From: Candidatus Daviesbacteria bacterium
GTDB lineage: Bacteria; Patescibacteriota; Microgenomatia; Daviesbacterales; UBA10151
Direction: 5' to 3'
NCBI GenBank assembly: GCA_028687915.1
Contig: JAQTZF010000001.1
Location: 546,634-610,633, forward strand
Length of the DNA stretch: 64,000 bases
The number at the start of each line of letters is the position of its first letter. Positions within the stretch are counted from its first letter, which is position 1. This document shows, one piece after another, positions 9,121 through 54,167 of this stretch. Both the position numbers and the translations under genes were made by a program. The notes under the pieces were generated by a model that was given only the letters and a program-made list of their open reading frames with translations, did no database searches and was not told the DNA's origin.

Positions 9121-9801
9121 ATGCAGGATTTAGAAACAAACGAAGAATATTTACCTTCCTTGCAAGAAGATAAAAGTTTTAATTTTTACAAGAGATTAAT
9201 AGATATTTTAGGCGGAATTGTTGGGATTATTATATTCTCTCCTATTATGATAATTACAGCAATTTGTATTAAACTTGATTCAAAAGGACCAGTTTTTGCA
9301 GATACTCCAATGAGGGTTGGTAAGAATGGAAAACATTTTAAAATGTATAAATTCCGTTCTATGGTTGTAAATGCTCATAAAATTCTTCAAAAAGACCAAA
9401 AACTATTAGAAGAGTATAAAAAGAATAGCTATAAAATTATTGATGATCCACGAATTACAAATGTGGGTAAGCTTATTAGGAAAGTATCTATTGATGAAAT
9501 GCCACAATTCTTTAATGTATTAAAAGGTGATATGAGTATTGTTGGAATCAGGCCTTATTATCCTTTTGAGCTAGAAGAGCAACAACAGAAGTATCCTCAA
9601 AGTAAAAAATTTGTTAAGATAGTTTTACAGTCTAAACCAGGAATTACTGGTGTATGGCAGGTATCAGGCCGGTCGAATATAAATTTTGATAAAAGGGTTG
9701 AAATGGATGCAGGTTATGTACAAAAGAAGTCAATTCTTTATGACCTTCAGCTTATTTTAAGAACAATACCTGTTGTTTTATTAGGCAAGGGTGCGATTTA
9801 A
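9121..9801 (+). CDS. Small monotopic phosphoglycosyl transferase (bacterial sugar transferase, WbaP/PglC-like initiating enzyme)
   Basis: It has a single N-terminal helix, followed by KGPVFADTPMRVGKNGKHFKMYKFRSM and GIRPYYP...VKPGITG, which are the bacterial sugar-transferase family motifs. Confidence 0.75.
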   Translation: MQDLETNEEYLPSLQEDKSFNFYKRLIDILGGIVGIIIFSPIMIITAICIKLDSKGPVFADTPMRVGKNGKHFKMYKFRSMVVNAHKILQKDQKLLEEYKKNSYKIIDDPRITNVGKLIRKVSIDEMPQFFNVLKGDMSIVGIRPYYPFELEEQQQKYPQSKKFVKIVLQSKPGITGVWQVSGRSNINFDKRVEMDAGYVQKKSILYDLQLILRTIPVVLLGKGAI

Positions 9802-19116: not shown

Positions 19117-19121
19117 TTATA

Positions 19122-20345: not shown

Positions 20346-20353
20346 GCCATACC

Positions 20354-20941: not shown

Positions 20942-20976
20942 AATTAGAATTATTTAAAGTATAATTCTATGCGTGT

Positions 20977-23177: not shown

Positions 23178-23212
23178 CACTATTCTAAGGTTTAAACTGA
23201 TACAATTAATTA

Positions 23213-26225: not shown

Positions 26226-26242
26226 AGTGTTAGAAAATATGT

Positions 26243-27638: not shown

Positions 27639-27650
27639 TTTTAGCTGTTA

Positions 27651-27679
27651 TTGACGGTTAAGTATTTTACTGTTAGAAT
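27651..27679 (+). promoter_or_regulatory. Candidate sigma70-type promoter for ftsZ (TTGACG-N17-TAGAAT)
   Basis: TTGACG at 27651-27656 and TAGAAT at 27674-27679 lie in the 105-bp ftsA-ftsZ spacer. Confidence 0.4.
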
Positions 27680-27743
27680 CTGCCCAAAGAGAGTAAATTC
27701 ATGCTAATAAACTTTTTTATGAAAAAAAGTTTGAAAGCACCGA

Positions 27744-35676: not shown

Positions 35677-35750
35677 GGAGTCATAGCTCAGTTGGTTAGA
35701 GCGCTGCATTCACATTGCAGAGGTCTCTGGTTCGAATCCAGATGGCTCCA
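35677..35750 (+). tRNA. tRNA-Val (anticodon CAC)
   Basis: Folded by hand it gives the cloverleaf: acceptor GGAGTCA/TGGCTCC, D-arm GCTC-AGTTGGTTA-GAGC, anticodon arm CTGCA-TTCACAT-TGCAG, T-arm TCTGG-TTCGAAT-CCAGA, discriminator A. No CCA is encoded. Confidence 0.8.
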
Positions 35751-35759
35751 CTAGTTGCT

Positions 35760-37025
35760 TTAATCTTGTTGAAATATAAAAATTTCACGGTGGATAGTTT
35801 GGTCGGGACGCGAATAGATAATTGAACCTCTTTCTGAAACTTCAAGATTTAAATCTTTATATTTGGAATTTTCCTGAAAGTTTAGTGGAGAAAACCCAAG
35901 TTTAAATAGTTGAGGTAAGATATTTAAATAATGAAGTGTATTACCAAATTTAAATGCTGGGAAAATAATTACTATTTTTCCATTCTTTTTTAAAATATTT
36001 TTAAATTGATAAAACGCATCAAGATATAATTTTTCCAGTATTTTTATTTCATTTTCTATTTGGGGGATATTAAAATGTTTTGATTTAGGAGAACCTAAGA
36101 ATGGTTCAGTGATAATTGCATCAATGCCTTCTTCCTTGAATGTTTGATTTAATTTTCTGACATCATATGTAAAAGTTTTAATATTAAAGTCTGATTTAAC
36201 TAAATCTTGGTATTGTTGGAATAACCAATCAATATTCTGGTTAGTTTTTTCAATTTGCTCAGATTTAAAATCTGTTCCAATAATATTTTTATATCCCAGA
36301 AGAATTAGTTCCTGTAAAATAGTTCCATTTCCGCAAAATGGATCTAATAATGTATCATTTATATCTTTGCCCGCAATATTAATCATAATTTTTGCAAGTT
36401 TTGGAGGAAGCATACCTGCCTCTGCATCCCGACCTGGTCTTTGATAGTCCCTAAAACTATAATCCTCGAAATTCTGAACAGCTAATGTTTTTCCAAAAAG
36501 GATTGTTTGTTCTTCAATAAAAATAGCTAGTTCAAAACCTTCTGTAAGTAATTTATTCTTAACGACTGAAACACTAGAAATACTTCGTTCCTGTGGCTTA
36601 AAGAAACTAGCTCTATATGAAGTTTGTAAGAACTTTTTCATTTTTGGTAATGTTCTGGTTGCTTCTCTTAAAATACTATTAATTTGGTTTGTTGTTGTAC
36701 CAGCGTTATATACACTAATTCCAAAAGTGATTTTTTGTAACTGAGGGTCGAAAAGCTTACTTAAAAAATTAATATCTGTTGCAAGTGAGGGAAACTGCTC
36801 AGTAAAATCTCCTGGTGCTAAAGAATCTACAATTTCCCCAACTTTGATTGTTCCTCCTAGTTTTACAATAAGGTCATGGGGGTTAATTTCTTGTGCAGTT
36901 TCTAAAATTAGCACCTCTTTAGATGATGTTATAATTTTTAAATCCTCAGTTTCCCCAAAAAAAGCTAGAATTTCAACTTTTGAAAGGTTGGGATTGCTTC
37001 CTAAAACAAAAAAATACTTATGCAT
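35760..37025 (-). CDS. Putative RNA (guanine-N2/adenine-N6-type) methyltransferase, UPF0020/Trm11-like with N-terminal THUMP-like region
   Basis: GMLPPKLAKIMINIAG...DPFCGNGTIL is the class-I MTase motif I / DPPF-type region of the Trm11/RlmL-like family. Confidence 0.5.
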   Translation of the reverse strand: MHKYFFVLGSNPNLSKVEILAFFGETEDLKIITSSKEVLILETAQEINPHDLIVKLGGTIKVGEIVDSLAPGDFTEQFPSLATDINFLSKLFDPQLQKITFGISVYNAGTTTNQINSILREATRTLPKMKKFLQTSYRASFFKPQERSISSVSVVKNKLLTEGFELAIFIEEQTILFGKTLAVQNFEDYSFRDYQRPGRDAEAGMLPPKLAKIMINIAGKDINDTLLDPFCGNGTILQELILLGYKNIIGTDFKSEQIEKTNQNIDWLFQQYQDLVKSDFNIKTFTYDVRKLNQTFKEEGIDAIITEPFLGSPKSKHFNIPQIENEIKILEKLYLDAFYQFKNILKKNGKIVIIFPAFKFGNTLHYLNILPQLFKLGFSPLNFQENSKYKDLNLEVSERGSIIYSRPDQTIHREIFIFQQD

Positions 37026-37050: not shown

Positions 37051-37812
37051 CTAATCTCCATTTTTCCTGGCCACGATTAATATATAAGCACATAGATTCT
37101 TTAACCCTAAGGAAAACATAATGAGTTCATAAAAAATAGAAATAATATAAAAAGGTACAAAAAAGCTGAAATATCTGGATTGATAATAACTTAAACTTAT
37201 TCTTTCAACCTTAAATCCTGTCTTTATAAAAACATTAATTATTGAACTGTAATAACAATAATTATAATTTGTTTTAAATCCACGAATATGTTTACTATTT
37301 AGTACTAAATTATTTAATAAAAGTTTGGAAAGTTGTTGTGGAATTATTTGGTTAAGCAAAGCAAAGATAGCAAACTTACAGGAAAATAAATTAATAGATA
37401 GACCGCCATTTTTTAATGATTTATTAGAATTCAATAGGAAGTTCGGAATATCATTTAAATGCTCAAATACATAACGAGAAGTAATAATATCTACTGAGTT
37501 ATTTTTTAATGGAAGTGTATTGTTTAAATTAGCAATAATAACCTTATTTGCATTAAGATTTTTTTCTAATTCTTTTTTATCTTCATCAATTACAATTAAT
37601 TCATGTTTTAAGTTAGGTTTTAAATATTTAAAGTATGGGGTAAGTCTCCCTCCTCCAATATCCACAATAGTAGGTGTATGTTTTTGATTAGCATATTTTG
37701 AAACTACTGTTGAATATTCTTCTGTAATATCTTTTTTTGCCTGTGGAAGTTTGCCTTCAATAACAAGGCATACTTTTTGATTAATTTCTATAAACTTTTT
37801 TATTATATCCAT
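37051..37812 (-). CDS. Class I SAM-dependent methyltransferase
   Basis: VDIGGGRLTPYF is a glycine-rich motif I, and VFEHLND follows. It is divergent from the ABC-transporter glycan module. Confidence 0.45.
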   Translation of the reverse strand: MDIIKKFIEINQKVCLVIEGKLPQAKKDITEEYSTVVSKYANQKHTPTIVDIGGGRLTPYFKYLKPNLKHELIVIDEDKKELEKNLNANKVIIANLNNTLPLKNNSVDIITSRYVFEHLNDIPNFLLNSNKSLKNGGLSINLFSCKFAIFALLNQIIPQQLSKLLLNNLVLNSKHIRGFKTNYNYCYYSSIINVFIKTGFKVERISLSYYQSRYFSFFVPFYIISIFYELIMFSLGLKNLCAYILIVARKNGD

Positions 37813-37875: not shown

Positions 37876-38658
37876 ATGATTTTAGAAAAATATAAAATAT
37901 TTAAGTATAAGGATTTGTTTTGGCAGCTCACACTTAGGGATATTAGAGCAAAATATAAACAATCAATACTGGGTTATTCCTGGGTAATATTAGTACCCCT
38001 GATTAACCTAACTGTTTTAAGTATTGTTTTTACTTTTGTTTTTAAAGTTCCTACAGGACCTGTTCCTTATCCAGTATATTTATTTACAGCCTTAGTTCCC
38101 TGGTTGTTTATGTCTAACGCAATAGTTGCAGCAACTGGTAGCGTTTTAGCTAATGCTTCCCTTGTTACAAAAATTTATTTACCCAGAGAAATTTTGCCTT
38201 TATCAGCTATAGCTTCAAAACTTGTAGATTTATTTTTGACTGCACTTATTTTAGGATTTTTTATGCTTGTATATGGTGTGCCGTTTCACGCAACAATATT
38301 ATTTGTACCATTTATATTATTAACTCAATTAATGCTAATAACTGGTGTTTCATTTATTTTATCAGCCAGTAATGTTTTTTACAGAGACATCGAACATGCA
38401 ATTGGTGTAATTTTAGGAGTGTGGATGTATTTAACTCCAGTTGTTTATTCTCCAGATTTAATCCCAGCAAATTTAAAAATCTTTTTTTATCTTAATCCAA
38501 TGAGTGGAATAATAGATGCTTACCGAGCAACTATTTTATATGGAGTTATTCCTATTTGGCCAGCATTTTTATATTCTTGTTTATTTTCTATAACTATTTT
38601 TATTGTTGGATTAATTTATTTTAGAAAAAATTCTAAGTATTTTGCAGAGGTTATTTAA
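37876..38658 (+). CDS. wzm: ABC-2 type polysaccharide export permease (Wzm/TagG-like)
   Basis: It has 6 TM helices. KYKQSILGYSWVILVPLINL is the ABC-2 N-terminal signature. Confidence 0.75.
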   Translation: MILEKYKIFKYKDLFWQLTLRDIRAKYKQSILGYSWVILVPLINLTVLSIVFTFVFKVPTGPVPYPVYLFTALVPWLFMSNAIVAATGSVLANASLVTKIYLPREILPLSAIASKLVDLFLTALILGFFMLVYGVPFHATILFVPFILLTQLMLITGVSFILSASNVFYRDIEHAIGVILGVWMYLTPVVYSPDLIPANLKIFFYLNPMSGIIDAYRATILYGVIPIWPAFLYSCLFSITIFIVGLIYFRKNSKYFAEVI

Positions 38659-38661
38659 AAT

Positions 38662-39396
38662 ATGAATGATAATATAGCGATAAACTTAGATAACGTTAGT
38701 AAGAGGTTTAAAAGAGGGCATAAACTTCTTTTAAAAGAGGCTTTACTTGATTTTTTTAGACCAACAAGACAAGAAGACTTTTGGGCTTTAAAGAATATTA
38801 GTTTTAAAGTTAAAAAAGGAGAAGCATTAGGAATAATCGGAACAAATGGGTCTGGAAAAAGTACAGTTTTAAAACTAATTGCCGGGGTTTTAAGTCCAAC
38901 CAAAGGAACAATTAGTGTTAATGGAAGAATAGGTCCCTTAATAGAATTAGGTGCGGGATTTCATCCTGAGTTAACTGGCAGAGAAAATATCTATTTAAAT
39001 GGAACAATCTTAGGTCTATCTATTAAAGAAATTAACGAGAAATTTAATGCAATTGTTAATTTTTCAGGGTTAGATGATTTTATTGATACTCCCGTAAAAC
39101 ATTATTCTTCTGGTATGTATATGAGACTTGGTTTTTCCATTGCTGTTCATGTTGAACCTGATATTTTATTAGTTGATGAAATTTTAGCAGTAGGGGATGC
39201 AGGTTTTCAAAAAAAATGTTTAGAGAAAATGAAAGAGTTCCATGATAAAGGAGTTACTATCATAATAATCTCGCATTCTGCTGACCTAATTAAATCGTTT
39301 TGTAAAAAAGCTATATTAATTAATCACGGAAAAATTGTAGTAATTGACTCAGTAGAAAAAGTAATTAATAAATATAGTAAATTAATTGATGGATAG
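38662..39396 (+). CDS. wzt: Polysaccharide export ABC ATPase (Wzt/TagH-like), nucleotide-binding domain only
   Basis: It has the Walker A motif GTNGSGKST, the signature SSGMYMRLGFS and Walker B LLVDE. At 244 aa it lacks a C-terminal carbohydrate-binding extension. Confidence 0.8.
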   Translation: MNDNIAINLDNVSKRFKRGHKLLLKEALLDFFRPTRQEDFWALKNISFKVKKGEALGIIGTNGSGKSTVLKLIAGVLSPTKGTISVNGRIGPLIELGAGFHPELTGRENIYLNGTILGLSIKEINEKFNAIVNFSGLDDFIDTPVKHYSSGMYMRLGFSIAVHVEPDILLVDEILAVGDAGFQKKCLEKMKEFHDKGVTIIIISHSADLIKSFCKKAILINHGKIVVIDSVEKVINKYSKLIDG

Positions 39397-39398
39397 AT

Positions 39399-42119
39399 AT
39401 GAAAAATAGCAAAGCAAAATTAGATTTTACCGGAGAAAGGTTAATTCCAGAGATAAATAAAGGGGAATCCTTTTACTATGAACACTTGGCTAGATACTTG
39501 TTTGCAAGTTCTTTTGTAAAGGGTAAGAGGGTTTTAGATGCGGGATGTGGTAGTGGATATGGAAGTAATATATTAGCAAGTTACGGAGGCGCAGCTAAGG
39601 TAACTGCAGTGGATCAGTCTAGTGAAGCAATAAACTATGCTTCAGATAAATATAAGCGTTCAAATATAGAATTTATTGTTAGTGATATATTAAAACTTGA
39701 TATTTCTAAGGATAAAGCTGAAGTTATTACTGCTTTTGAAATTATTGAACATCTTAAAGAGTATTCCTTATTCCTGGAAGTATTAAAAAGTTCATTAAAA
39801 CCAAATGGATTACTAATTGTTTCAACACCAAATAAAAATGCTTCTACTCAAGATAATCCTTATCATACACAAGAATTTACTCCAGAACAGTTTGTTAATC
39901 TTTTAAAAAAGTATTTTAAATTTGTAAACATTTTTTATCAAGGCTATGAATTTTCTCAAGTTATAAAATCAAATGAAAAAATTGATTTTAAATTAGAGGA
40001 AGATTATATTAAGTTGCAACAAGATGTTTATGGGCCTAAAGCCAATACTAAAAATTCACAATATTTAGTTGCAGTGTGTAGTAACACTAAGAATCAATTA
40101 CAAACAAAGACTGTTTCAGTAAATACTGATCGTGTGGATAGCTATGATTTAACTCAGGGTTTAGTTTCTTTGGAAAAGCAATTTTCTACTCTACATAAAT
40201 TTATTGAAAGCCTGAATGAAAGAAATAAAAGAACGGAATTTGAATTAGATAGTGTAAGAGGAGAGTTGGATTATATTAAGTATTCAAAATTTTTTATTTT
40301 ATGGCCATATTACATAAAAGTTAGAGATGTATTTAGGTCGTTCGCAAGTTTTATTTTTAAACTTAAATTAATTGCGAATTTGAATTCAAATTTTGACGCT
40401 TATCAAAAATGGTTTGCTATTAATTATCCTTCTAAGAAAAAATTACTTCAACAGCAAAAAGAAGCTGAAGGATTTAAACTGAAACCAAAAATTTCTATTA
40501 TAACACCAACTTTTAACACCCCGGAAAGGTTTTTAAGAGATTGTATTGAATCAGTTCAAAATCAAAGTTATCAAAATTTTGAACTTTGTATCGCGGATGA
40601 TGCTTCAACTGATCCAAAAGTGAGAGAAATTATTAGAGAATATGCTCATAAAGATAAGCGGATTAAATATATTTTTCGAAAAGAGAATGGTCATATATCA
40701 CAGGCTTCAAACTCGGCACTAGAAATTGCTACTGGTGGATATATTGGGTTACTTGATCATGATGATATATTATGGCCTAACGCATTATTCGAGCTAGTAA
40801 AAGCGCTTAATAATCATCCCAAAGCAGAGTTTTTCTATTCAGACGAAGATAAACTAGATGAAGATGGTAGAACACATGTAAACCCATTTTTTAAACCAGA
40901 TTGGAGCCCGGATTATTTAAGATCAATTAATTATATTACTCATTTTTCTGTATTAAAAAGATCACTGGTAAATAAAATAAATGGATTTAGAGTTGGTTTT
41001 GAGGGATCTCAGGATTTGGATTTATTTTTAAGGGCAACTAATCAAATTGATGATTCTTCAAAAATTATCCATATTCCTACAATTCTATACAGTTGGAGAA
41101 AATCTCCTTTTTCTACTGCTTCAGAAAAGAATGGACTTTCTGTTAAAAGTTATGCTTACAGAAATCAGCAAAAAAGTTTAGTAGAAGATTTAAAATTAAG
41201 AGGTTATGTAGGGAATGTTGTGCAAACAAAGAATTTAGGTAGTTGGAGAGTACGTTATGATATTATAGGTAATCCACTGGTCTCTATTATTATTCCTACT
41301 AAAAATCAATTTAGAAATATTTCCAATTGTTTGAATTCAATTATTCAAAAATCTACTTATCGTAATTTTGAATTAATTATTTTAGATACTGGGTCTACAG
41401 AATCAGGCGTTCGAGATTTTTATGATTTGATTAAGAAAAAGCATCCTAAAACGCAAATAATTAATTGGACTAATGAGTTTAATTTTTCCTCTGTTTCAAA
41501 TTTTGGTGCTGAAAAAGCAAAGGGTGAATATTTAGTATTTTTAAATAATGATACTGAGGTAATTACGCCTGATTGGATTGAAAGCTTATTAGAACATGCT
41601 CAGCGTAAGGAGGTAGGGGCTGTTGGGGCAAAATTATTGTATCCAGATAAAAAAATTCAACATTTGGGAGGAGTATTGGGGGTATGCACTAACAAAGAAA
41701 AAAAAGGATTTGCGGGGCATGCTTATAAATACATTCCATCAGAAACTTTCATAAATTTTGATTCTTATGCTATAAAAAATTATAGCTTTGTGACAGCTGC
41801 ATGTTTAATGGTTTCAAAAAAGAAATTTAAAGAAGTAGGCGGTTTTGATGAAAAATTTAAAATAGCTTTTAATGACATAGATCTATGTTTAAAATTATAC
41901 AAAGATAAGAAATATTTTAATTTAATTAATCCTAATGCAGAACTATTTCATAAAGAATCTGCAACCATTCAAACTATAGATAAAAAAGAGCGCGATACTA
42001 ATCTATGGAGAAACGAAACTTTATTTTTTCATAATAAGTGGGGAGAGGTGGTGAGTAAGGATCCTTTTTATAATCCTCATCTGACTAAGGATAAAGAGGA
42101 CTTTAGTGTTGGAGTATAA
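39399..42119 (+). CDS. Trifunctional fusion: N-terminal SAM methyltransferase, coiled-coil linker and two GT2 glycosyltransferase domains
   Basis: The methyltransferase motif I is VLDAGCGSGYGSN. A coiled-coil-like segment of about 100 aa follows. The two GT2 modules are marked by ISIITPTFNTPERFLRDCIESVQNQSY...ADDASTD and VSIIIPTKNQ...LDTGST, each with a DxD. Confidence 0.7.
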   Translation: MKNSKAKLDFTGERLIPEINKGESFYYEHLARYLFASSFVKGKRVLDAGCGSGYGSNILASYGGAAKVTAVDQSSEAINYASDKYKRSNIEFIVSDILKLDISKDKAEVITAFEIIEHLKEYSLFLEVLKSSLKPNGLLIVSTPNKNASTQDNPYHTQEFTPEQFVNLLKKYFKFVNIFYQGYEFSQVIKSNEKIDFKLEEDYIKLQQDVYGPKANTKNSQYLVAVCSNTKNQLQTKTVSVNTDRVDSYDLTQGLVSLEKQFSTLHKFIESLNERNKRTEFELDSVRGELDYIKYSKFFILWPYYIKVRDVFRSFASFIFKLKLIANLNSNFDAYQKWFAINYPSKKKLLQQQKEAEGFKLKPKISIITPTFNTPERFLRDCIESVQNQSYQNFELCIADDASTDPKVREIIREYAHKDKRIKYIFRKENGHISQASNSALEIATGGYIGLLDHDDILWPNALFELVKALNNHPKAEFFYSDEDKLDEDGRTHVNPFFKPDWSPDYLRSINYITHFSVLKRSLVNKINGFRVGFEGSQDLDLFLRATNQIDDSSKIIHIPTILYSWRKSPFSTASEKNGLSVKSYAYRNQQKSLVEDLKLRGYVGNVVQTKNLGSWRVRYDIIGNPLVSIIIPTKNQFRNISNCLNSIIQKSTYRNFELIILDTGSTESGVRDFYDLIKKKHPKTQIINWTNEFNFSSVSNFGAEKAKGEYLVFLNNDTEVITPDWIESLLEHAQRKEVGAVGAKLLYPDKKIQHLGGVLGVCTNKEKKGFAGHAYKYIPSETFINFDSYAIKNYSFVTAACLMVSKKKFKEVGGFDEKFKIAFNDIDLCLKLYKDKKYFNLINPNAELFHKESATIQTIDKKERDTNLWRNETLFFHNKWGEVVSKDPFYNPHLTKDKEDFSVGV

Positions 42120-43101
42120 AATGGTAGATGTTTCTGTAATAATTCCAAATTGGAACGGAGCAGATTTGCTATTTGATTGTCTAGTATCCTTAAAGAAACA
42201 GACATATAAGAATTTTGAAATAATTGTTGTAGACAATGGTTCAACAGACACTTCTGTAAATTTTATTAAAGAAAATTATCCAAAAATAAAGATAGTTATT
42301 TTAGATAGGAATTATGGATTTGCAAAAGCGATTAATAGTGGTGTTAAATTATCTAAAGCTAAGTATGTAGCTTTTTTAAATAATGACACAGAGGTAGATA
42401 AAAGCTGGTTAAATAATTTAGTAAAAACTATAGATAAACATCCTGAGGCTGCTTCGGTTGGATCAAAATTATTAAATTTTTATAACAGAAAAATTATTGA
42501 TGGAGTAGGTATTCAAATTAATGAGGTGGGACAGGCAAAATCAATTGGCTGGAATGAAAAAGACAAAGGTCAATACGAAAAAGAAATGTTAGTATTTGGT
42601 GTAACAGGAGGCGCTTCTCTTTTTCGGAGATCTATATTTATTAAAGTAGGAATGTTTGATGAAAACTATTTTATGTACTGCGAAGAAGTTGACTGGGCTT
42701 TTAGGGCACAGTTTTCAGGATACAAGGCAATTTATTGTCCGAATGCTATTGTTTATCATAAACATAAAATGTCCTCCAAAAAAACACCACAACATTTGGA
42801 ATATTGGCAATTTAGAAATATGACACAAACAATAATTAAAGATTTTCCAATGAATATCTTATTAAAACAAGGAAGATGGTTAAAAATAGTTTTGGTCCAT
42901 TTAAATACCTATATTTATATGTTTAAAAATGGTTTTTATTGGCCATCACTTTTAGCCGATTTTTGGATAATATTACACTTACCAATTCTTTTAAAAATGC
43001 GTTTTAGCATTCAGAGTTCCAAAAAGATTAAAGATGATGAAATCGAGAAATTTTTGTTTTCTAAAAATATTACATATTGGGGTTTATTAAAAAAGAAATA
43101 A
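42106..43101 (+). CDS. Family 2 glycosyltransferase
   Basis: VSVIIPNWNGADLLFDCLVSLKKQTYKNFEIIVVDNGSTDTS is a GT2 domain. Confidence 0.7.
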   Translation: MLEYKMVDVSVIIPNWNGADLLFDCLVSLKKQTYKNFEIIVVDNGSTDTSVNFIKENYPKIKIVILDRNYGFAKAINSGVKLSKAKYVAFLNNDTEVDKSWLNNLVKTIDKHPEAASVGSKLLNFYNRKIIDGVGIQINEVGQAKSIGWNEKDKGQYEKEMLVFGVTGGASLFRRSIFIKVGMFDENYFMYCEEVDWAFRAQFSGYKAIYCPNAIVYHKHKMSSKKTPQHLEYWQFRNMTQTIIKDFPMNILLKQGRWLKIVLVHLNTYIYMFKNGFYWPSLLADFWIILHLPILLKMRFSIQSSKKIKDDEIEKFLFSKNITYWGLLKKK

Positions 43102-43108
43102 TTTTTTA

Positions 43109-43849
43109 TTAAGATTTGTAAGTTACTTTACGTGTAACTTGTATTGAGTTTCCTGCAATATCTGTGGCAATAATAGTGATATTGTTCTCTCCTTCATTTA
43201 TATCTATGGTTCTGGAGAATTTGCCATCAGAATCTACAATTGTTCTGGTTCCATTTATAGTAATGGAGATATCTTTGTCGGAATTTGTTTTTCCAGTGAC
43301 AGTAACCTTTTTGTCTCCTCCATTAATTTCTTGATTATCTGTGGGAGATTGAATCTCCAATATAGGTTTCTCGTTTGAATAAACAATTAATATTGGTTTT
43401 GAAGAAAGGCTTTTATTGCCATTACTGTCAATTGTTATTCCTGAAATTTTATTAGTACCTAAACTTAGATCAATAGGTTCACTCACAAAGCTTCCGTCAC
43501 CACTTGTATCAATAGATGATTTTAGTTCTCCGTCTAAGTATATTTCTACTTTTGTATTTGAAAGAGAATAGCCTTTGACAAGGATTTGTGCTGACGATGT
43601 TGCTTCATAAGGAATATTTAAAACAGGAGGAGCAAGGGATGCGTTTTCTGTGATTGATTCTTGAGATTTAACAGGTTCTTTAAAGCGGTTCAACAAAGAA
43701 AGGCTACCTATAAAGTTTGGGATAAACCAGGCAACTAATATATATAGTAAAACTGCACAAATTATTAAGGTTAAATAAAATCTCTTTTTGCTTTTTCTTT
43801 CCAGTCTTCTTGATAAAAATGATTTATTTGAATATTTTTTACGTTTCAT
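43109..43849 (-). CDS. Membrane-anchored surface protein with tandem Ig-like/beta-sandwich repeats
   Basis: An N-terminal TM helix is followed by repeated segments of the form KVTVTGKTNSDKDISITINGT / NKISGITIDSNGN, which are typical of bacterial Ig-like domains. Confidence 0.4.
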   Translation of the reverse strand: MKRKKYSNKSFLSRRLERKSKKRFYLTLIICAVLLYILVAWFIPNFIGSLSLLNRFKEPVKSQESITENASLAPPVLNIPYEATSSAQILVKGYSLSNTKVEIYLDGELKSSIDTSGDGSFVSEPIDLSLGTNKISGITIDSNGNKSLSSKPILIVYSNEKPILEIQSPTDNQEINGGDKKVTVTGKTNSDKDISITINGTRTIVDSDGKFSRTIDINEGENNITIIATDIAGNSIQVTRKVTYKS

Positions 43850-45839: not shown

Positions 45840-46508
45840 ATGGCGAGAGCTAAACAATCAACAATTAGTGTTTTGAGGCATTTTTCTTTTGCTCAAAATA
45901 GCAATGTGAAATTAGCTGTTTTGACCTCTGTTTTAAGCTTGGTTTTATTCTTTACAGTTGCATCTTTATCACCTTTTAAAAATATGCTGCTGTCATCGCT
46001 TTTTCCCAAACAAGCATCATACGCTTCAATTACTTCTACACCAGCTCCTACCACTGGTTTAAATTTATTGAAAAATGGTTCTTTTGAAGAAGGAGTGGCT
46101 CCCTGGTTTCTAAATGTTACACCTCCAGCAGCAGGTAGTTTATTATCAGCAACAAATACCGCAATTGACGGGAGATCTTCTGCTACAGTCAATATTAACT
46201 CTAATGCATCGCAATCTTGGTATGTACAATTCCGCCAGGACAACCTTTCTCTTCTTGCTGGTAAATCTTATACTCTTACTTTTTGGGCAAAAGCAGATAA
46301 GCGATTAAAAATTGATTATGCATTACAGCAAATGGAGAGTCCTTATACAGTATATTTTGGGAAGTCAATAAATTTATCAACAAAATGGCAAAAGTATAGT
46401 TACTTTTACAATGCGACAGCTAACTTAAGTAATGTTTTTCTCGGCTTTAACTTAGCTAGTACAAAAGCCAGTATTTGGATAGATAATGTTTCACTTGTTT
46501 CAAACTAA
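45840..46508 (+). CDS. Secreted carbohydrate-binding module protein (CBM4/9/22-like)
   Basis: A signal/TM region is followed by LLKNGSFEEGVAPW...SWYVQFRQDNLSLLAGKSYTLTFWAKAD, the classic CBM_4_9 beta-sandwich pattern. Confidence 0.55.
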   Translation: MARAKQSTISVLRHFSFAQNSNVKLAVLTSVLSLVLFFTVASLSPFKNMLLSSLFPKQASYASITSTPAPTTGLNLLKNGSFEEGVAPWFLNVTPPAAGSLLSATNTAIDGRSSATVNINSNASQSWYVQFRQDNLSLLAGKSYTLTFWAKADKRLKIDYALQQMESPYTVYFGKSINLSTKWQKYSYFYNATANLSNVFLGFNLASTKASIWIDNVSLVSN

Positions 46509-46512
46509 AAAT

Positions 46513-49500
46513 ATGGATTCTTTACAGAAAGCTGATAATCGTTTGCATAGGTTTATAAGAAGATTTTCAAAAAAGCACCTTATTCTTTTTGTTCTGATTC
46601 TGTCTGTTATTTCTATATCAATGGTTGTGTTTATTGGTAATCAACTAAACCCCTCTGTTTCTATTGCCTCTGAGAGCTTAATTTATAGTGACTCACTATC
46701 CTCTGGTTGGTATAACTGGTCATGGAGTGCTAATATAGATTTCTTTTCTACCACTATAGTTAGGTCTGGAAATACTTCAATTGCCTTTACACCACAAGCC
46801 TGGGGTGGATTATCTCCAGCTATGGCCAGTGGAACACTGGATACAAATCCCTATACCAATTTACGTTTTTATATTAATGGAGGATCTGCTGGTGGACAAC
46901 GATTAAATATTGAAATTCGTAATGGAGATATAGTTGGTCCATCAATTAATATTAATAATTATATTGAAGGGGGTAGTATTGCAGCTAATCAATGGAGAAA
47001 AGTAGATATTCCATTAAGTATATTAAAAGGGAGTGTTTTAACTAATGGGATAATTAATAGAATTGCTTTAAAAGAAGCACTTGGTATTTCTGAATCAACT
47101 GTATATATTGATGATCTTGGCTTTTATACTGCAGCTGTTTTAACTCCTACTCCAACTTTAACCTCAACCCCTACAGTAACCCCAATACCTACCAATACTG
47201 TTACTCCTTCTCCTACCTCCAGTATCTCTTCACCAGTAATTTATTCTGATTCTTTAGCAAAAGGATGGGCAAACTGGTCGTGGAGTTCAACAGTTAACCT
47301 GTCTTCAACAAAGAATTCTTATTCAGGCAATAGATCTATAGCCTTTACCCCTGCAGGTGGGGGTGGATTTTCTCCTGCCTTAACAAGCGGTTCTTTTGAT
47401 ATTTCTCCATATAACCAAATTACCTTTTATATAAACGGAGGAACAGTTGGAAATCAATTATTTGCACTTGAATTACGAGATAGTTCAACTATTGGACCAA
47501 GGGTGCCGATAAATAATTATATTGAAGGAGGTAGAGTTGCAGCTAATCAATGGAAAAAGGTGGCTATCCCACTAAGTGTTTTAAAGGGTTCTGTTTTAGG
47601 AAATTCAATAAACAGGTTAGCTTTGGTGTCGACAAGCGGATCTTCTCAGGACACTGTTTATCTTGAAGATATAATTTTTGTGAATGGGTCGGATATTATT
47701 ACTCCTCTACCAACCTCCACTATCATTCCTACTATAACGCCTACACCAACCTTAAGCATAACTCCCACAAGAATAAATACACCAACCCCAACAAGTGTAA
47801 TTACTGTTTCTCCTTCTCCAACAGTCACAGCACCACCAATAACTGAAGTATGTACAGCTTCACTTGCAGCTTGGTCTGCATCTGCAAACCCGGTAATTGA
47901 AGGAACTTTAACTAACTTAAATGTAATTACCTCTGGTAACTGTGATGGAAAAACAGTGTCTTTTGAGGTTTGGGCGGCAACCGGTGTTGCAGGGGTTGGA
48001 GATACCAGATCGCGTGTTTCGCCATCCAATGCTGTAATTGTGAATAATCAGGCTACTGGTTCTTGGGTAGCAGAATATATTCAGCCTGCACAAGTAGGTG
48101 TATTTCAGCAAATAGTTTCTTTCTTTGAAAATATTATTACACCACAAGCAGCTACTGCTTCAGAGTATTACTTTAAGGTAAATATGGTTGGTGATACACA
48201 TACAGTAACTTCTGCAGATCCAAAAATGGTTGTTAATCAGCAACCACCTGTACCCAGTGGCGATGTAGTTAGTATTAATACTGAAAGTACAGTAGGGACA
48301 ATCAGTGCTGATTTTTATGGTAACAATTTAACTCCGTATGGTGGACCATCTATGACTAAAAATCAAAATTTTATTAATAAAGTTGCTCCCTTGAAATACA
48401 ACACAATAAGAATTCCTGGTGGGTATGAGGCTGATGGTTATCATTGGTGGAATGGAACAATGCAAGTTTTAGCTGACAGAGGTTATATGTGGACTGGCAC
48501 TCCTCCACAGCTTGTAGATTACCTATACTTTACAGAATCAGTTGGAGCAAAGCCTATGATTACCGTTAATTACAGAAGCGGTACTCCCAGAGAAGCTGCT
48601 AACTGGGTGGAATATATGAATAGTCCGGTGCCTGCAAATCCTGGTGCAGGATGGACCACATCCTCTTATGCTGGTAATCAGGCAGCTCCAAAAGGCTATT
48701 TTGCTTGGTTAAGAGCTCAACCGGGGCCAACAACAACATGCAAAGTTTGTGCTGGACATCCAGCTCCTTATGGGGCAAAGTATTGGGAAGTTGGTAATGA
48801 AATTTACTATCATAGGGATGGAAACAGAAATTTAATAGATAATCCAGAACATTATGCTGTTGCCTATGTTCCGTTTGCTGATGCTATGAAAGCAGTAGAT
48901 CCTTCTATAAAAGTAGGCTTTGTTATGGAAGCTTATGATAAATATGTAGGTTCCTGGACTGATAGATCAATAAAGGCATTGGCTGCCAATAATACTCTTG
49001 GAAAGGTAGACTTTCTTGTTGTTCATTGGTATAGATATTGGGATGATGGTTCATATAATACATGGGGTATTGAACGTCAGCAGAATGCGGCGTATGGGCA
49101 TAATGATTTTGTAAAATACGCAGGTTCTTACCCTAAGATTGCAGCAGATTGGATGAGAGGATTGCTTGAGGCTGCTTCTCCGGGTAGCTCTAATAGAATT
49201 GAGTTAAATTTGACGGAGTGGGGGCCAAATTCCGGTGAACCCTGTGATTGGGATGTCTTAAGTATATACAGCCATTTATTTGCCATGCGAACCCTGGCAG
49301 AGGCACAGTTGTCAAATTATTTTTCTACAACCTACTGGAATATTAACCAAGGTACTAGTAATTTCTCTATGATCCAAGATAATTATCAAGTTGGACCAAT
49401 TTACTGGGCATTTGACATGATGAAAGATTTTGGAAGAGGTGGAGATAAACTGGTTTCTGCTTCTTCTGGTAATCCAAATGTTTATACTTATGCTTCAAAA

Positions 49501-51099
49501 CTAAGTAATGGGTCTTTAAGTATTTTGTTACTTAATAATAGTAGTAATTCTTCAAATATGACTGTTAAATTATCCGGGTTTACCCCATCCGGTACTGCAA
49601 CACTTCGACAATATGATCAGGCTCTTTTGGGAACGAGTTTTAAGGAGTATCCAAAAGATTGTTCTCAGAATCAACCCGCTTTACCTCAGGATTGTTGTAC
49701 TCACGGAGCAACCAACCGAAACGGTGGACCTCAAACACCACCCAGACAATCATCTTTAAATGGTATTGGTAATCAGTTTAATATTTCATTGCCAGCAGAT
49801 AGTTCAACTATTTTAGTGATACCATCATCATCGGGAACTGTAACACCCACTCTCACATTAACACCAACAATAACTCAAACTTCCACTCCGGTACCCACTT
49901 TAACTACTACTCCTGCACCAACCTCTCCTCCAACTGGGAGTATGTCTCCTAATATGATAATTTCGCGAGGTAAAACAGTATCTGCTTCATCTGGAGATGG
50001 ACAAAGCCTGGTTAATGGAATTTATAATGATTATGGTTGGAGACCTGGAATTCCTACTGCTTCCAGTCCTGCCTGGATAGCAATTAATATAGGATCTGGA
50101 CCATCCAGATTATTATTAAATTGGACTAATACAGCTAGCTATAATTACACAGATACAGGTTATGGAACCCCAAGTGACTATGTAATTCAAACATCTGGTA
50201 ATTCAACAAATGGAAGAGATGGAACATGGTCAAATGTGGTAACTGTAGCTGCAAATAATGTTAGAAATAGAGCTCACAGCTTTGATTTTAGTGGTAAAAG
50301 CTGGGTGAGGTTATATATTACAAAGACTACTGCAAGCAGTTGGAATAATATGTATGGAGTTGCTTTGGATGAAATTGATATTCATGATGTTTCACGTTCA
50401 TCTTCAGATACTTGGTTTTTTATGGGTGATAGCCTTACCGCAAATGACAATCGATCGAATCAGCCTGATTATGCAGCTAGTATTAATGCCTTTAATTCCA
50501 GTTATTATCCAGCCGAAATTAATGGTGGGATTGGATTTGAAACCAGTGCGAATGGTGTTTCACATATTGATAATTGGCTTTCATTAAATCCTGATATGAA
50601 ATATTGGGCAATTAATTACGGAGGAAATGATGCTGCAGGGAATAATTCAAATACTACGAATTTTAGAAATAACATGCAAATAATTATTAATAAAATTAAA
50701 GCAGCAGGCAAGATTCCTGTGATTGCCAGAATTCATTATATTGCTGATGGAAATCATAATAATATAGCTGCTTTTAATACAGTTATTGATGATTTAGCTA
50801 GGACAAATGGTTTAATCCCAGGGCCGGATTTATATACCTGGTTTTATAACCATCAAAATGAATTAGGTCCTGATCGTTTACATCCAAATAGTTTAGGATC
50901 AGTCTCTATTAACAGATTATGGTCAGAAAGCATGAGAGGACTTTATACAAATGCTGGTTCTGCAAGTACAAGCACTGTTGCCAGCACGACAAATAATGGT
51001 TTTGGAATTCAAACAATTACAGATTTTGGTCAGACAGCTGTTCAAACTATACAAGATTTTGCAACTCAAGTAATCCAACTTTATAATCAACCAAAATAG
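46513..51099 (+). CDS. Giant membrane-anchored multidomain polysaccharide-active enzyme
   Basis: - An N-terminal TM helix anchors the protein.
- Two CBM-like beta-sandwich repeats of about 190 aa follow, each with the pattern YSDSL..GW.NWSWS...FYINGG...NNYIEGG..AANQW.KV.IPLS.LKGSVL.
- Pro/Thr-rich linkers (TPTPTLTSTPTVTPIPT and TPTLTLTPTITQTSTPVPT) separate the modules.
- A clan GH-A (beta/alpha)8 glycoside hydrolase carries YWEVGNE and LNLTEWGP.
- An F5/8 type C (discoidin) domain is present.
- A C-terminal SGNH/GDSL esterase carries FFMGDSLT, GGNDA and DRLHPN.
- The ATG at 46513 is preferred over 46486. Confidence 0.7.
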   Translation: MDSLQKADNRLHRFIRRFSKKHLILFVLILSVISISMVVFIGNQLNPSVSIASESLIYSDSLSSGWYNWSWSANIDFFSTTIVRSGNTSIAFTPQAWGGLSPAMASGTLDTNPYTNLRFYINGGSAGGQRLNIEIRNGDIVGPSININNYIEGGSIAANQWRKVDIPLSILKGSVLTNGIINRIALKEALGISESTVYIDDLGFYTAAVLTPTPTLTSTPTVTPIPTNTVTPSPTSSISSPVIYSDSLAKGWANWSWSSTVNLSSTKNSYSGNRSIAFTPAGGGGFSPALTSGSFDISPYNQITFYINGGTVGNQLFALELRDSSTIGPRVPINNYIEGGRVAANQWKKVAIPLSVLKGSVLGNSINRLALVSTSGSSQDTVYLEDIIFVNGSDIITPLPTSTIIPTITPTPTLSITPTRINTPTPTSVITVSPSPTVTAPPITEVCTASLAAWSASANPVIEGTLTNLNVITSGNCDGKTVSFEVWAATGVAGVGDTRSRVSPSNAVIVNNQATGSWVAEYIQPAQVGVFQQIVSFFENIITPQAATASEYYFKVNMVGDTHTVTSADPKMVVNQQPPVPSGDVVSINTESTVGTISADFYGNNLTPYGGPSMTKNQNFINKVAPLKYNTIRIPGGYEADGYHWWNGTMQVLADRGYMWTGTPPQLVDYLYFTESVGAKPMITVNYRSGTPREAANWVEYMNSPVPANPGAGWTTSSYAGNQAAPKGYFAWLRAQPGPTTTCKVCAGHPAPYGAKYWEVGNEIYYHRDGNRNLIDNPEHYAVAYVPFADAMKAVDPSIKVGFVMEAYDKYVGSWTDRSIKALAANNTLGKVDFLVVHWYRYWDDGSYNTWGIERQQNAAYGHNDFVKYAGSYPKIAADWMRGLLEAASPGSSNRIELNLTEWGPNSGEPCDWDVLSIYSHLFAMRTLAEAQLSNYFSTTYWNINQGTSNFSMIQDNYQVGPIYWAFDMMKDFGRGGDKLVSASSGNPNVYTYASKLSNGSLSILLLNNSSNSSNMTVKLSGFTPSGTATLRQYDQALLGTSFKEYPKDCSQNQPALPQDCCTHGATNRNGGPQTPPRQSSLNGIGNQFNISLPADSSTILVIPSSSGTVTPTLTLTPTITQTSTPVPTLTTTPAPTSPPTGSMSPNMIISRGKTVSASSGDGQSLVNGIYNDYGWRPGIPTASSPAWIAINIGSGPSRLLLNWTNTASYNYTDTGYGTPSDYVIQTSGNSTNGRDGTWSNVVTVAANNVRNRAHSFDFSGKSWVRLYITKTTASSWNNMYGVALDEIDIHDVSRSSSDTWFFMGDSLTANDNRSNQPDYAASINAFNSSYYPAEINGGIGFETSANGVSHIDNWLSLNPDMKYWAINYGGNDAAGNNSNTTNFRNNMQIIINKIKAAGKIPVIARIHYIADGNHNNIAAFNTVIDDLARTNGLIPGPDLYTWFYNHQNELGPDRLHPNSLGSVSINRLWSESMRGLYTNAGSASTSTVASTTNNGFGIQTITDFGQTAVQTIQDFATQVIQLYNQPK

Positions 51100-51977: not shown

Positions 51978-52072
51978 CAAATACTAACCGCTTTTATGTT
52001 TATTTAGCCAAACCACTATTTCGAGCCTAAAATCAATAAAAGGGACTATTCTGGGGACACTGTCCCGTCTGG

Positions 52073-52143
52073 AGCGGGGTACGAGAATCGGACTCGCTTC
52101 TCTACCTTGGGAAGGTAGCATACTACCGGTGTACTAACCCCGC
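52073..52143 (-). tRNA. tRNA-Gly (anticodon CCC)
   Basis: Reverse-complemented, it folds as GCGGGGT-TA-GTAC-ACCGGTA-GTAT-G-CTACC-TTCCCAA-GGTAG-AGAA-GCGAG-TCCGATT-CTCGT-ACCCCGC-U. The U73 discriminator is typical of Gly. C55 in the T-loop is unusual. Confidence 0.65.
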
Positions 52144-54113: not shown

Positions 54114-54167
54114 TAGTAAATTATATCTAAATATTATAGGTTATTCAAGAAGTAAAAACCTATCTAG

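Follow-up and report, generated by a model that had tools for sequence, protein, structure and literature searches.

A glycan export and polymerization operon

The window analyzed here covers 64 kb out of the 1.1-Mb genome of a Candidatus Daviesbacteria (CPR) bacterium. It contains a tightly packed operon of four genes, encoding Wzm, Wzt, a 906-residue fusion protein and a GT2 glycosyltransferase, with gaps of 2-3 nt between wzm, wzt and the fusion gene. The open reading frame positions given by an earlier, sequence-only reading of the window were matched exactly, and the E-values of the Pfam domain matches in the operon were far beyond chance. The operon and the features around it are as follows:

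37876..38658, + strand: wzm, ABC-2 type permease of the glycan exporter, 260 aa (Pfam ABC2_membrane, E 2e-14)
38662..39396, + strand: wzt, nucleotide-binding subunit, NBD only, 244 aa (ABC_tran only)
39399..42119, + strand: putative polymerase-terminator, methyltransferase + helical spacer + GT2 + GT2, 906 aa (Pfam, NCBIfam, AlphaFold2)
39438..40094, + strand: class I SAM-dependent methyltransferase domain, residues 14-232, proposed cap enzyme (motifs, model)
40152..40280, + strand: heptad-periodic helix, residues 252-294, candidate coiled-coil spacer/ruler (heptad register, helix model)
40287..40424, + strand: second long helix, residues 297-342, possible membrane-proximal or oligomerization element (helix model)
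40485..41198, + strand: first GT2 module (GT-A fold), residues about 363-600 (Glycos_transf_2 at 366-526)
41274..42053, + strand: second GT2 module (GT-A fold), residues about 626-885 (Glyco_tranf_2_2 at 629-852)
42106..43101, + strand: single-domain GT2, candidate adaptor or third linkage transferase, 331 aa (Glycos_transf_2, E 2e-33)
37051..37812, - strand: small class I methyltransferase, 253 aa, divergent from wzm (Methyltransf_11, E 9e-10)
35760-37025: UPF0020/TIGR01177/Trm14-like RNA methyltransferase (methyltransferase domain)
43109..43849, - strand: membrane-anchored Ig-like protein, 246 aa (Glucodextran_B, E 4e-22; Big_7)
9121..9801, + strand: small Bac_transf phosphoglycosyl transferase (Pfam Bac_transf, E 5e-61)

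The wzm product has six hydrophobic segments and weak matches to the NCBIfam models of galactan Wzm/RfbD and KpsM. At the same chromosomal site in related genomes, wzm is 88% (L002), 62% (L087) and 61% (L003) identical to that of the window. The downstream GT2, with 331 residues from a GTG start or 326 from an ATG at 42121 (the call of an independent assembly), matches the rhamnosyltransferase subfamily TIGR01556 (E 1e-19). It also directly follows the polymerase in L003 (48% identity) and L087 (41%), and in L001 a homologue (40% identity) sits upstream of wzm.

Two further, divergent methyltransferase genes upstream of wzm had been pointed out in the sequence-only reading. Their domains were confirmed, but 35760-37025 encodes a housekeeping RNA methylase. 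The 253-residue protein, which has a C-terminal hydrophobic segment, has a homologue in L002 only (58% identity); L003 and L087 lack one at the corresponding site, and the small methyltransferases of L001, L005 and L089 are unrelated to it. Since one gene is housekeeping and the other is found in L002 only, neither can be counted among the constant genes of the module. We regard the 253-residue protein as an optional accessory. The Ig-like protein has an N-terminal hydrophobic segment at residues 21-39. Members of its family adjoin the polymerase in L003, L088, L004 and L092, and in the latter two also lie beside a Wzy_C protein, making it a conserved module neighbor with a putative link to the glycan. 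The sole priming candidate in the window is the Bac_transf gene, 28 kb away. WsaP, a WbaP-type enzyme, primes an analogous pathway in Geobacillus (PMC2943079), and our guess is that the Bac_transf product might do so for the window glycan.

Domains of the 906-residue protein

A domain HMM scan returned a methyltransferase and two GT2 domains; with the spacer between them, this is the layout originally described. Pfam Methyltransf_31/11/25 matched residues 35-157 (E 1e-20 to 1e-16), and motif I (VLDAGCGSGYGS) and D72 are present. Comparison of 25 family members identified 26 invariant methyltransferase residues. All were kept in the window protein, in which the SAM-binding residues are intact, and also in P0002 and P0052, which belong to the same clade with NBD-only Wzt. 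The AlphaFold2 model of the domain, built from a 25-sequence alignment, reached a pLDDT of about 90. The fold is a generic class I fold, with NodS, ToxA and Hen1 among the best matches; WbdD was absent from the top 60 PDB profile and the top 50 Foldseek matches to the methyltransferase module. A more specific assignment comes from gene neighborhoods. Among loci seeded on the methyltransferase family, 33 of the 37 having wzt encode an extended Wzt, and Pfam Wzt_C was found in all extended Wzt proteins tested (35/35). Stand-alone relatives usually lie 3-7 nt downstream of a Wzt_C-bearing wzt. By this association, the window methyltransferase probably belongs to a family of cap enzymes.

A coiled-coil spacer had been placed at about residues 200-330. 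The helical spacer was recovered, but with other boundaries, about 250-342, as the methyltransferase fold still includes residues 183-232. In the AlphaFold2 model from the 25-sequence alignment, the spacer forms a long helix at 255-294 and another at 297-342, with pLDDT values of 85-97. A single unbroken heptad register extends only over residues 245-296 or so. The heptad helix (252-294) would measure about 6 nm if extended and likely forms a coiled coil, although the two helices may fold back on each other in the monomer model. WbdD and WbbB have extended rulers, next to which the heptad stretch, at about 45 residues, is short. The fused homologues have spacers of 54 to 111 aa, and one homologue carries tandem 7-residue repeats. 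The second helix starts right after a conserved S-x-x-F/W-K-L motif (Ser296) that is kept in both fused and stand-alone forms. Residues 300-327 are moderately amphipathic (hydrophobic moment 0.42-0.52), and no transmembrane segment was found in helix 297-342.

The two Glycos_transf_2 stretches (366-526 and 629-852) matched with E 7e-54. The first module has the invariant residues D453, D455 and D456 inside LLDHDD and a pLDDT above 90; the second, also modeled confidently by AlphaFold2, has N716, D718 and E720 inside FLNNDTE, plus H851/E853. The best structural matches of the modules are the two-GT-A polymerases K4CP and PmHS2. Residues 321-906, which include both modules, are 44% identical to the dual GT2 protein of an Enterococcus avium EPA-type rhamnan locus.

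Missing cap reader and rival readings

The window Wzt covers all 244 positions of the galactan Wzt/RfbE model, matches TagH models over the NBD part of these models only, and has ABC_tran as its sole domain. As the 906-residue open reading frame starts 2 nt past the wzt stop, a C-terminal domain would not fit in, in agreement with the proposal that this Wzt is NBD-only. It is 70-75% identical to the NBD-only Wzt proteins of L002, L003 and L087. NBD-only Wzt beside this methyltransferase family, found in the window and in the two syntenic relatives L002 and L003, is a conserved anomaly. Coupling of termination and export therefore probably differs from that in E. coli O9a, as the sequence-only reading had suggested. 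Its term "streamlined" fits less well: in a sister Daviesbacteria genome (L087/L088), the same chromosomal site carries wzm, an NBD-only wzt, a dual GT2 gene without methyltransferase, and a GT2 gene. For this reason, it seems that an uncapped, CBM-less system gained the capping module by grafting, and not that a capped one was trimmed. Comparable fusions of modifier, spacer and dual GT2 are also found together with an NBD-only Wzt in Nostoc, Oscillospiraceae and Thaumarchaeota.

That the fusion stems from an assembly error or a frameshift, or that the methyltransferase is a decaying, functionless relic, is largely refuted and highly improbable. A split version does occur in L089, where a 339-residue methyltransferase-spacer gene overlaps a 606-residue dual GT2 gene by 4 nt, and in P0022, one of the fused homologues, 11 of the 26 invariant methyltransferase residues are gone. 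However, at least 11 full-length fused homologues (41-56% identity) exist, 11 of which, from independent samples, align across a homologous linker. Moreover, an identical 906-residue gene is present on an independent assembly contig, and the search in related genomes found synteny at this site to be conserved in L002 and L003. The three members of the NBD-only clade have kept all 26 invariant residues, although their methyltransferase domains are mutually just 47-54% identical. It is also improbable, though less so, that export is still gated by a cap whose reader acts in trans, either a free-standing carbohydrate-binding protein or an additional transporter with Wzt_C, encoded elsewhere in the genome. 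Consistent with such a reader, another Daviesbacteria genome (L090) pairs a canonical Wzt_C-bearing Wzt, with an NBD 67% identical to the window Wzt, with a stand-alone methyltransferase-spacer gene. The NBD and CBM of the O9a Wzt reportedly can work as separate polypeptides. However, the Wzt C-terminal domains of four relatives gave no tblastn match in the whole window (best E 0.59), the flanking DNA of the syntenic L002, L003 and L087 loci contains no Wzt_C-like sequence, and no split CBM gene was seen among the loci examined. Since the window covers 64 kb of 1.1 Mb, a cap reader, like sugar-nucleotide genes and a final ligase, may be encoded elsewhere.

A stronger, but still unlikely, competitor is a methyltransferase that decorates internal residues of each repeat or of a subset, with a helix that merely dimerizes or positions the enzyme. 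Without a cap, no cap reader would be needed, which fits the NBD-only Wzt of the window, L002 and L003. The shortness of the heptad stretch and the sister locus that works without any methyltransferase point the same way, and the fused sulfotransferase or CmcI-like methyltransferase domains of other CBM-less loci could equally decorate. Against this, the same methyltransferase family adjoins Wzt_C-bearing transporters, a signature of cap enzymes, and a length-variable heptad spacer, which a simple decorator would not need, is kept in fused and stand-alone forms. WsaE, with the same layout, methylates the terminal rhamnose (PMC2943079).

Proposed pathway and comparison with known systems

Most likely, a methyl cap stops elongation without gating export. 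We give a probability of about one half to the full reading, in which the operon directs an ABC-transporter-dependent, polyprenol-linked surface glycan, terminated by a fused, grafted capping module and exported without cap gating. A phosphoglycosyl transferase encoded elsewhere, possibly the Bac_transf protein, would supply the lipid-linked primer, which the 331-residue GT2 would extend as adaptor or third linkage enzyme. The two GT-A modules, polymerase-like in fold and family, would alternate in the cytoplasm, possibly with dTDP-rhamnose as donor, as their EPA/WsaE-type kinship suggests. The two spacer helices would hold the methyltransferase off the GT modules. O-methylation of the non-reducing terminal sugar would then block elongation, as family association and the architecture shared with WsaE and O7 ORF6 suggest. 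Wzm and NBD-only Wzt would export the chain with its cap unread, similar to the CBM-less transporters of Klebsiella pneumoniae O1/O2a and Vibrio cholerae O1; in V. cholerae O1 and K. pneumoniae O1, caps are not needed for export (PMC10629545). Historically, methyltransferase and spacer from a canonical capped system may have been fused to the polymerase of an uncapped, CBM-less locus, the presumed ground state in this Daviesbacteria clade.

The fusion of modifier and polymerase is not new in itself: WsaE and, in K. pneumoniae, WbbB of O12 and ORF6 of O7 are biochemically characterized examples. In the S-layer glycan system of Geobacillus stearothermophilus NRS 2004/3a (other members Wzm, Wzt, WsaC, WsaD, WsaF), WsaE combines an N-terminal 2-O-methyltransferase with two rhamnosyltransferase domains and is encoded directly after wzm-wzt (PMC2943079); its methyltransferase caps the terminal sugar (PMC2943079, PMC9415975). 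The likeness, judged by described layout, includes the N-terminal SAM methyltransferase and two GT domains on one chain, touching or overlapping codons after wzm-wzt, additional single-domain GT2 enzymes and a monoderm-type host. According to the model in a review, however, the Geobacillus Wzt would bind the methylated chain, for which the window Wzt has no domain.

The dual GT2 of the E. avium locus (L023: RmlB, RmlD, wzm, wzt) resembles residues 321-906, but no N-terminal methyltransferase was confidently detected on it, and its Wzt is extended (401 aa). An adjacent 1073-residue GT2 protein gave a 16-bit methyltransferase HMM match. The enterococcal proteins EF2180 and EF2181 have reported homology to the rhamnosyltransferase domain of WsaE (PMC7188991). 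By analogy, rhamnose may be the donor sugar of the window enzyme.

ORF6 (methyltransferase-kinase, coiled coil, two GT2) and WbbB share with the layout proposed for the window protein an N-terminal terminator, a coiled coil and two C-terminal GT2 domains as polymerase, and their clusters likewise encode Wzm, Wzt and a separate GT2 adaptor (PMC11231755). ORF6 differs by its kinase, internal Ig-like CBM, methyl-phosphate cap and longer coiled coil, and in WbbB a Kdo transferase serves as terminator; the window protein has only a methyltransferase and the shorter heptad helix. ORF6 and WbbB both pair with a cap-reading CBM on Wzt, unlike the window protein. E. coli O9a and K. pneumoniae O3 share with the proposed window pathway the methyl-type cap, ABC-transporter export and a coiled-coil spacer between terminator and membrane-proximal polymerase. 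In O9a, however, the terminator (WbdD, which includes a kinase) is a protein apart from the polymerase (WbdA), the CBM is essential, and WbdA consists of GDP-mannose-dependent mannosyltransferase modules instead of GT2.

NBD-only Wzt is shared with K. pneumoniae O2a/O1 and V. cholerae O1 Ogawa. The modifying enzymes of K. pneumoniae O1 and V. cholerae Ogawa are stand-alone proteins not known to have a coiled coil, whereas the window modifier, a member of a coiled-coil terminator family, shares one chain with the polymerase. The terminal pyruvate (K. pneumoniae O1) or 2-O-methyl group (V. cholerae Ogawa) is not required for export (PMC10629545, PMC11231755), and these two modifications are described as an added epitope that does not set chain length (PMC10629545). 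Because all coiled-coil terminator systems studied by experiment have a CBM on their transporter (PMC11231755), a capped glycan with NBD-only Wzt has no characterized precedent in this architecture. The window operon encodes a known enzyme type, and its only unusual point is an exporter missing the module that checks the cap.

Gene content of the operon and its surroundings

The glycan module consists of four tightly packed plus-strand genes, with gaps of 2-3 nt or a short overlap between them. The spacing of wzm and wzt is 3 nt, and the polymerase ORF begins 2 nt past the wzt stop.

Genes of the glycan operon and two genes upstream of it (window coordinates)
35760-37025, minus strand: UPF0020/TIGR01177/Trm14-like RNA guanine-N2 methyltransferase; adjoins tRNA-Val (35677-35751)
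37051-37812: 253-aa methyltransferase
37876-38658, plus strand: wzm; Pfam ABC2_membrane
38662-39396, plus strand: wzt, 244 aa; ABC_tran only, with the NCBIfam TagH and galactan Wzt/RfbE models over the NBD
39399-42119, plus strand: 906-aa ORF; class I methyltransferase at residues 35-157, Glycos_transf_2 at 366-526 and 629-852
42106-43101 (an independent contig has the start placed at the ATG at 42121), plus strand: 331-aa GT2, single GT2 domain (Pfam/NCBIfam)

The Pfam and NCBIfam calls agree with the operon and domain content assigned by the sequence-only reading. An ABC-2 permease and a Wzt/TagH-type NBD are encoded together, as is characteristic of a Wzm/Wzt-dependent glycan pathway. Beside the transporter lies a cytoplasmic multi-GT polymerase with two GT2 modules, intact acidic motifs, and no transmembrane segment found in its 906 residues. 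A promoter/terminator scan was uninformative (42 promoter-like sites vs 45 expected). The locus is a genuine operon of a known kind, with a polymerase-terminator of the WsaE/ORF6 type (see below) and an ABC exporter, found here in a CPR bacterium of the Microgenomates, Candidatus Daviesbacteria.

The two upstream methyltransferase genes were considered as parts of the module, which did not hold up. In L004, one of the loci compared in other genomes, a homologue of the RNA methylase gene is flanked by the genes for ribosomal proteins L27 and L21, and the gene is therefore regarded as housekeeping and outside the glycan module. The 253-aa methyltransferase has a homologue in L002 only, the nearest relative; it is absent from L003 and L087, and unrelated to the small methyltransferases of other loci. 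Neither gene is a constant part of the module.

A membrane-anchored Ig-like protein (about 240 aa, Glucodextran_B/Big) adjoins the polymerase in five CPR loci.

Positions of the Ig-like protein
Window: 43109-43849, minus strand
L003: 11180-11929
L088: 9827-10546
L004: 2078-2797
L092: 2806-3534

In L004 and L092, the Ig-like protein lies beside a Wzy_C protein (O-antigen ligase / O-oligosaccharyltransferase family). By analogy with Geobacillus, this neighbourhood hints at ligation or protein O-glycosylation, and the Ig-like protein could be a glycan acceptor or a ligase partner. It was ruled out as a cytoplasmic cap reader, because a basic N-terminus followed by one hydrophobic segment places the Ig domains outside the cell.

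The window contains a second glycan-synthesis cluster at 105-11722.

Genes of the second cluster, in order
105-998: GT2
973-2433: protein of 486 aa without Pfam match; 10 hydrophobic segments, C-terminus weakly Wzy_C-like
2420-3898: PMT_2/GT-C
Next: GT4, GT2, GT4, GT4
9121-9801: Bac_transf
9791-11722: DUF4012 protein

Amid this cluster, mraW (7073-7984) runs in the opposite direction, separated by about 9 kb from the remaining dcw genes (17260-28979). At the position expected for murB, between two Mur ligase genes, a 195-aa FAD_binding_4 ORF was found (20354-20941). Typical MurB proteins have about 300 aa, and the ORF is much shorter. On the other side of the operon, at 45840-51099, the gene for a 222-aa CBM_4_9 protein overlaps the next gene, whose 1537-aa secreted product combines repeated carbohydrate-binding-like modules and long Pro/Thr linkers with an ASD1_dom (arabinofuranosidase-like) and a GDSL lipase/esterase domain. 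The GC content of this stretch reaches 0.37-0.40, compared to about 0.32 window-wide. Further along, downstream of a tRNA-rich stretch (tRNA-Gly 52070-52143, tRNA-Asp 54167-54240), a 580-aa DNA polymerase of family X (pol beta-like), containing HHH_8 and DNA_pol_B_thumb, is encoded at 54842-56584.

The 906-aa protein and precedents for its architecture

A protein in NCBI matches the 906-aa protein with 100% identity. In an alignment of 12 full-length homologues (41-56% identity), the SAM-binding residues D47, G51, and G55 of motif I (VLDAGCGSGYGS) and D72 were invariant, as were the motifs of the first (D453/D455/D456 in LLDHDD) and second GT2 module (N716/D718/E720 in FLNNDTE). All 26 methyltransferase residues that are unchanged across 25 family members are kept in the proteins of the window, L002 and L003, bearing out the earlier assignment of a SAM methyltransferase. 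In P0022 (L092 6001-8694), a fused protein without an adjacent ABC transporter, 11 of the 26 have been lost, some of them in the glycine-rich SAM loop, and its sequence may represent a decaying capping domain.

AlphaFold2 predicted with confidence a methyltransferase domain up to residue 232 or so, and a pair of GT-A domains at about 365-600 and 628-885. When residues 1-345 were modelled separately with 25 relatives (pLDDT 89.5), long helices emerged at 255-294 and 297-342. A simple heptad scan restricted a single unbroken register to about 245-296, i.e. about 45 residues, or about 6-7 nm if extended; the second helix comes after a conserved S-x-x-F/W-K-L motif and is moderately amphipathic. 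From the methyltransferase fold to this motif, the spacer measures 54-111 residues among fused homologues. The heptad stretch of the window protein is short beside the prototypes WbdD, WbbB and ORF6-O7. A coiled-coil spacer, proposed earlier for residues 200-330, is thus likely, but it is short and located at about 250-342. In P0114 (L091 6001-8802), another fused homologue, the spacer consists of tandem seven-residue repeats (THQQLxS-like), a sequence pattern that suggests heptad duplication as a route of spacer-length evolution.

Foldseek matched the C-terminal two-thirds of the protein to the two-GT-A polymerases PmHS2 and K4CP. The methyltransferase has a generic class I fold (matches NodS, ToxA, Hen1). 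Kinship to the O9a enzyme WbdD was not found: WbdD was absent from 55 phmmer PDB matches, the best 60 of 226 profile matches, and the top 50 Foldseek matches. Pfam detected no kinase domain in the 906-aa protein, which does not belong to the WbdD methyltransferase-kinase type, and the AlphaFold2 secondary structure contained no extra beta-rich domain that might be a hidden carbohydrate-binding module (CBM).

The sequence-only reading had presented the fusion as a departure from the paradigm of separate proteins. This premise is outdated, because fused enzymes have already been characterized. WsaE of G. stearothermophilus combines an N-terminal 2-O-methyltransferase, which caps the terminal rhamnose, with two rhamnosyltransferase domains, and its gene comes after wzm and wzt with overlapping codons (PMC2943079). 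In K. pneumoniae O7 ORF6, a methyltransferase-kinase and a coiled coil precede two GT2 modules at the C-terminus, and WbbB of K. pneumoniae O12 also carries terminator and polymerase on a single chain (PMC11231755). The fusion is therefore a known architecture and no novelty. It is also no assembly artefact: fused homologues come from many independent samples, an identical gene is found on an independent contig, and the linker is homologous among fused forms. A split form exists in L089, where a 339-aa methyltransferase and spacer gene overlaps a 606-aa dual GT2 gene by 4 nt in a locus that otherwise matches the fused locus L005, indicating that fusion and fission are natural variation.

Absence of the cap reader

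In all terminated O-polysaccharide examples, Wzt has a CBM (PMC11231755), the C-terminal module (Pfam Wzt_C, PF14524) that acts as cap reader. Residues 1-345 of the window protein have more than 1,400 relatives, the best of which are mostly stand-alone proteins of 280-460 aa that also cover the spacer. Metagenome loci were seeded on the methyltransferase module (match of at least 80 bits, plus wzt; n = 37). An extended Wzt was encoded in 33 of the 37, its gene usually ending 3-7 nt before the methyltransferase gene, and Wzt_C was present in 35 of 35 extended Wzt proteins tested. These frequencies mark the methyltransferase family as a cap-enzyme family by association, to which the window is an exception. 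The four loci with NBD-only Wzt were the window's own contig, two with wzt 4-5 kb away, and one with a 162-aa Wzt-like ORF 528 nt away.

The sequence-only reading was right to describe the window Wzt as NBD-only: ABC_tran alone covers the 244 aa, and tblastn with four Wzt C-terminal domains found no Wzt_C-like sequence in the 64-kb window (best E 0.59). The CBM that defines the capped, ruler-controlled subclass is also missing from the Wzt proteins of L002 (243 aa) and L003 (225 aa). An NBD-only Wzt would fit the uncapped, CBM-less class (K. pneumoniae O2a type), but that class has no modifier, and here an intact methyltransferase is fused to the polymerase. The interest of the locus lies in this conserved absence of a cap reader where presence is the family rule, with a hint of recurrence among fused forms. 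Divergent CBM-less systems of this kind may already be among those catalogued in a 2019 Glycobiology census of terminators and CBMs by Mann et al.

Synteny with relatives, named as a check by the sequence-only reading, was found: L002 (polymerase 56% identical) and L003 (42%, a Daviesbacteria MAG) have the same gene order as the window. The L003 operon is found at the same site of the chromosome, where it follows FtsW/RodA, L21, L27, ParB and signal peptidase. In a sister Daviesbacteria genome, represented by L087 and L088, this site contains wzm, an NBD-only wzt (243 aa), a dual GT2 of 626 aa that lacks a methyltransferase, a downstream GT2, and the Ig-like neighbour, and L087 fits the uncapped CBM-less class. 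L090, from another Daviesbacteria genome, has the canonical capped layout, in which a Wzt_C-bearing Wzt precedes a stand-alone methyltransferase and spacer gene, with GTs after it. The NBD of the window Wzt shares 70% identity with the L087 Wzt and 67% with the corresponding domain of the L090 Wzt. Judging from these sequences, the simplest history would start from an uncapped, CBM-less locus, whose polymerase then acquired a capping module by fusion.

The dual-GT2 module (about 330-906) occurs very widely, preceded by N-terminal extensions that range from 8 to about 980 residues. Modifier-fused polymerases occur with a CBM-bearing Wzt in L001, L009, L034, L036 and L091. In the L091 locus, Wzt has 432 aa and carries Wzt_C, and two additional small methyltransferases are encoded. 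An NBD-only wzt lies directly upstream in the window clade and in three further loci, all with a heptad-like spacer.

Other modifier-fused polymerases with an NBD-only wzt directly upstream
L013 (Nostoc), 8405-11683: sulfotransferase fused to dual GT2
L027 (Thaumarchaeota MAG), 8729-12178: CmcI/Methyltransf_24 fused to dual GT2
L052 (Oscillospiraceae MAG), 9860-12583: class I methyltransferase fused to dual GT2

Among fused modifier-spacer-dual-GT2 proteins with a recognized modifier, Wzt is NBD-only in about half of the lineages. Stand-alone methyltransferase and spacer genes with wzt within 700 nt are accompanied by an extended Wzt in about 30 loci, and by a full-length NBD-only Wzt in none. 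Counting all stand-alone loci with extended Wzt (32 with vs 0 without CBM) against fused lineages (5 with vs 4 without), Fisher's test gives p of about 0.001, with kinship ignored and the samples drawn differently. A greater share of NBD-only Wzt among fused than among stand-alone forms is thus a lead, not a result.

A more far-reaching reading, with a probability of about 0.3, is that the fusion of modifier, heptad spacer and polymerase couples termination to export in a third, distinct and recurrent mode: the cap would end elongation in cis once the ruler-set length is reached, and the exporter would need no reader. Three rivals stand against the most likely mechanism, which is described below. 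The short spacer and the CBM-less exporter would suit a methyltransferase that decorates internal residues, so that no cap is made and no reader needed. Such an activity is plausible but fits poorly with the tight linkage of the family to Wzt_C and with WsaE, and we consider it less likely. Alternatively, the cap might be read in trans by a protein encoded elsewhere in the genome. A candidate was not seen in any syntenic flank, and we regard this explanation as improbable. An artefactual fusion, or a methyltransferase that is only a relic, is hardly credible: the independent fused homologues, the independent identical contig, and the 26/26 residues kept in the NBD-only clade largely refute it.

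Proposed chain assembly and comparison with known systems

The mechanism that we consider most likely builds on the observed gene content, folds, intact catalytic residues, lack of a reader in the window, and family link to capped systems. The 331-aa GT2 would extend a lipid-linked primer. The primer may be made by the small Bac_transf phosphoglycosyl transferase at 9121-9801, the sole candidate primase in the window, 28 kb away; MraY of the dcw cluster was excluded as a priming candidate. The two GT-A modules would then polymerize the chain, until the methyltransferase, kept distant by the spacer, methylates the non-reducing terminus and growth stops. Wzm/Wzt would export the chain with its cap unchecked. 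For later steps, Pfam identified no LCP family match among about 38 window ORFs scanned, and the sole Wzy_C-like ligase match in the window was weak (973-2433, E 8.5e-4).

Residues 321-906 are 44% identical to a dual GT2 from an E. avium EPA-type locus with RmlB, RmlD, wzm and wzt, and the E. faecalis counterparts are reported to be rhamnosyltransferases of WsaE-like type (PMC7188991). For the donor sugar, none of the NCBIfam models reached its curated cut-off. As a guess from this similarity, the donor may be dTDP-rhamnose.

In the current view of the field, a coiled-coil terminator and the cap-reading CBM of Wzt are a linked pair that sets and preserves chain length. The window locus is a conserved natural system with a terminator-type module and spacer but without the reader, and both comparison states exist among its close relatives, uncapped and CBM-less in L087, canonically capped and CBM-bearing in L090. 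The three loci form a ready-made set for asking if a cap by itself is enough to set chain length when export has no quality control. The locus also brings this assembly strategy to light in CPR bacteria, a group with barely characterized envelopes, and a compact 906-aa polymerase-capper could serve glycoengineering.

There is precedent for caps that are dispensable for export with a CBM-less transporter, namely the terminal 2-O-methyl group of V. cholerae O1 Ogawa and the terminal pyruvate of K. pneumoniae O1 (PMC10629545). Neither system has been described with the coiled-coil fusion of the window protein. In its arrangement, the window protein resembles WsaE, going by the published description of the latter: a single polypeptide, whose gene comes straight after wzm-wzt, carries a SAM methyltransferase at its N-terminus and two GT domains behind it (PMC2943079). 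If this ordinary reading alone is true, the locus is another glycan operon of the WsaE/ORF6 type.
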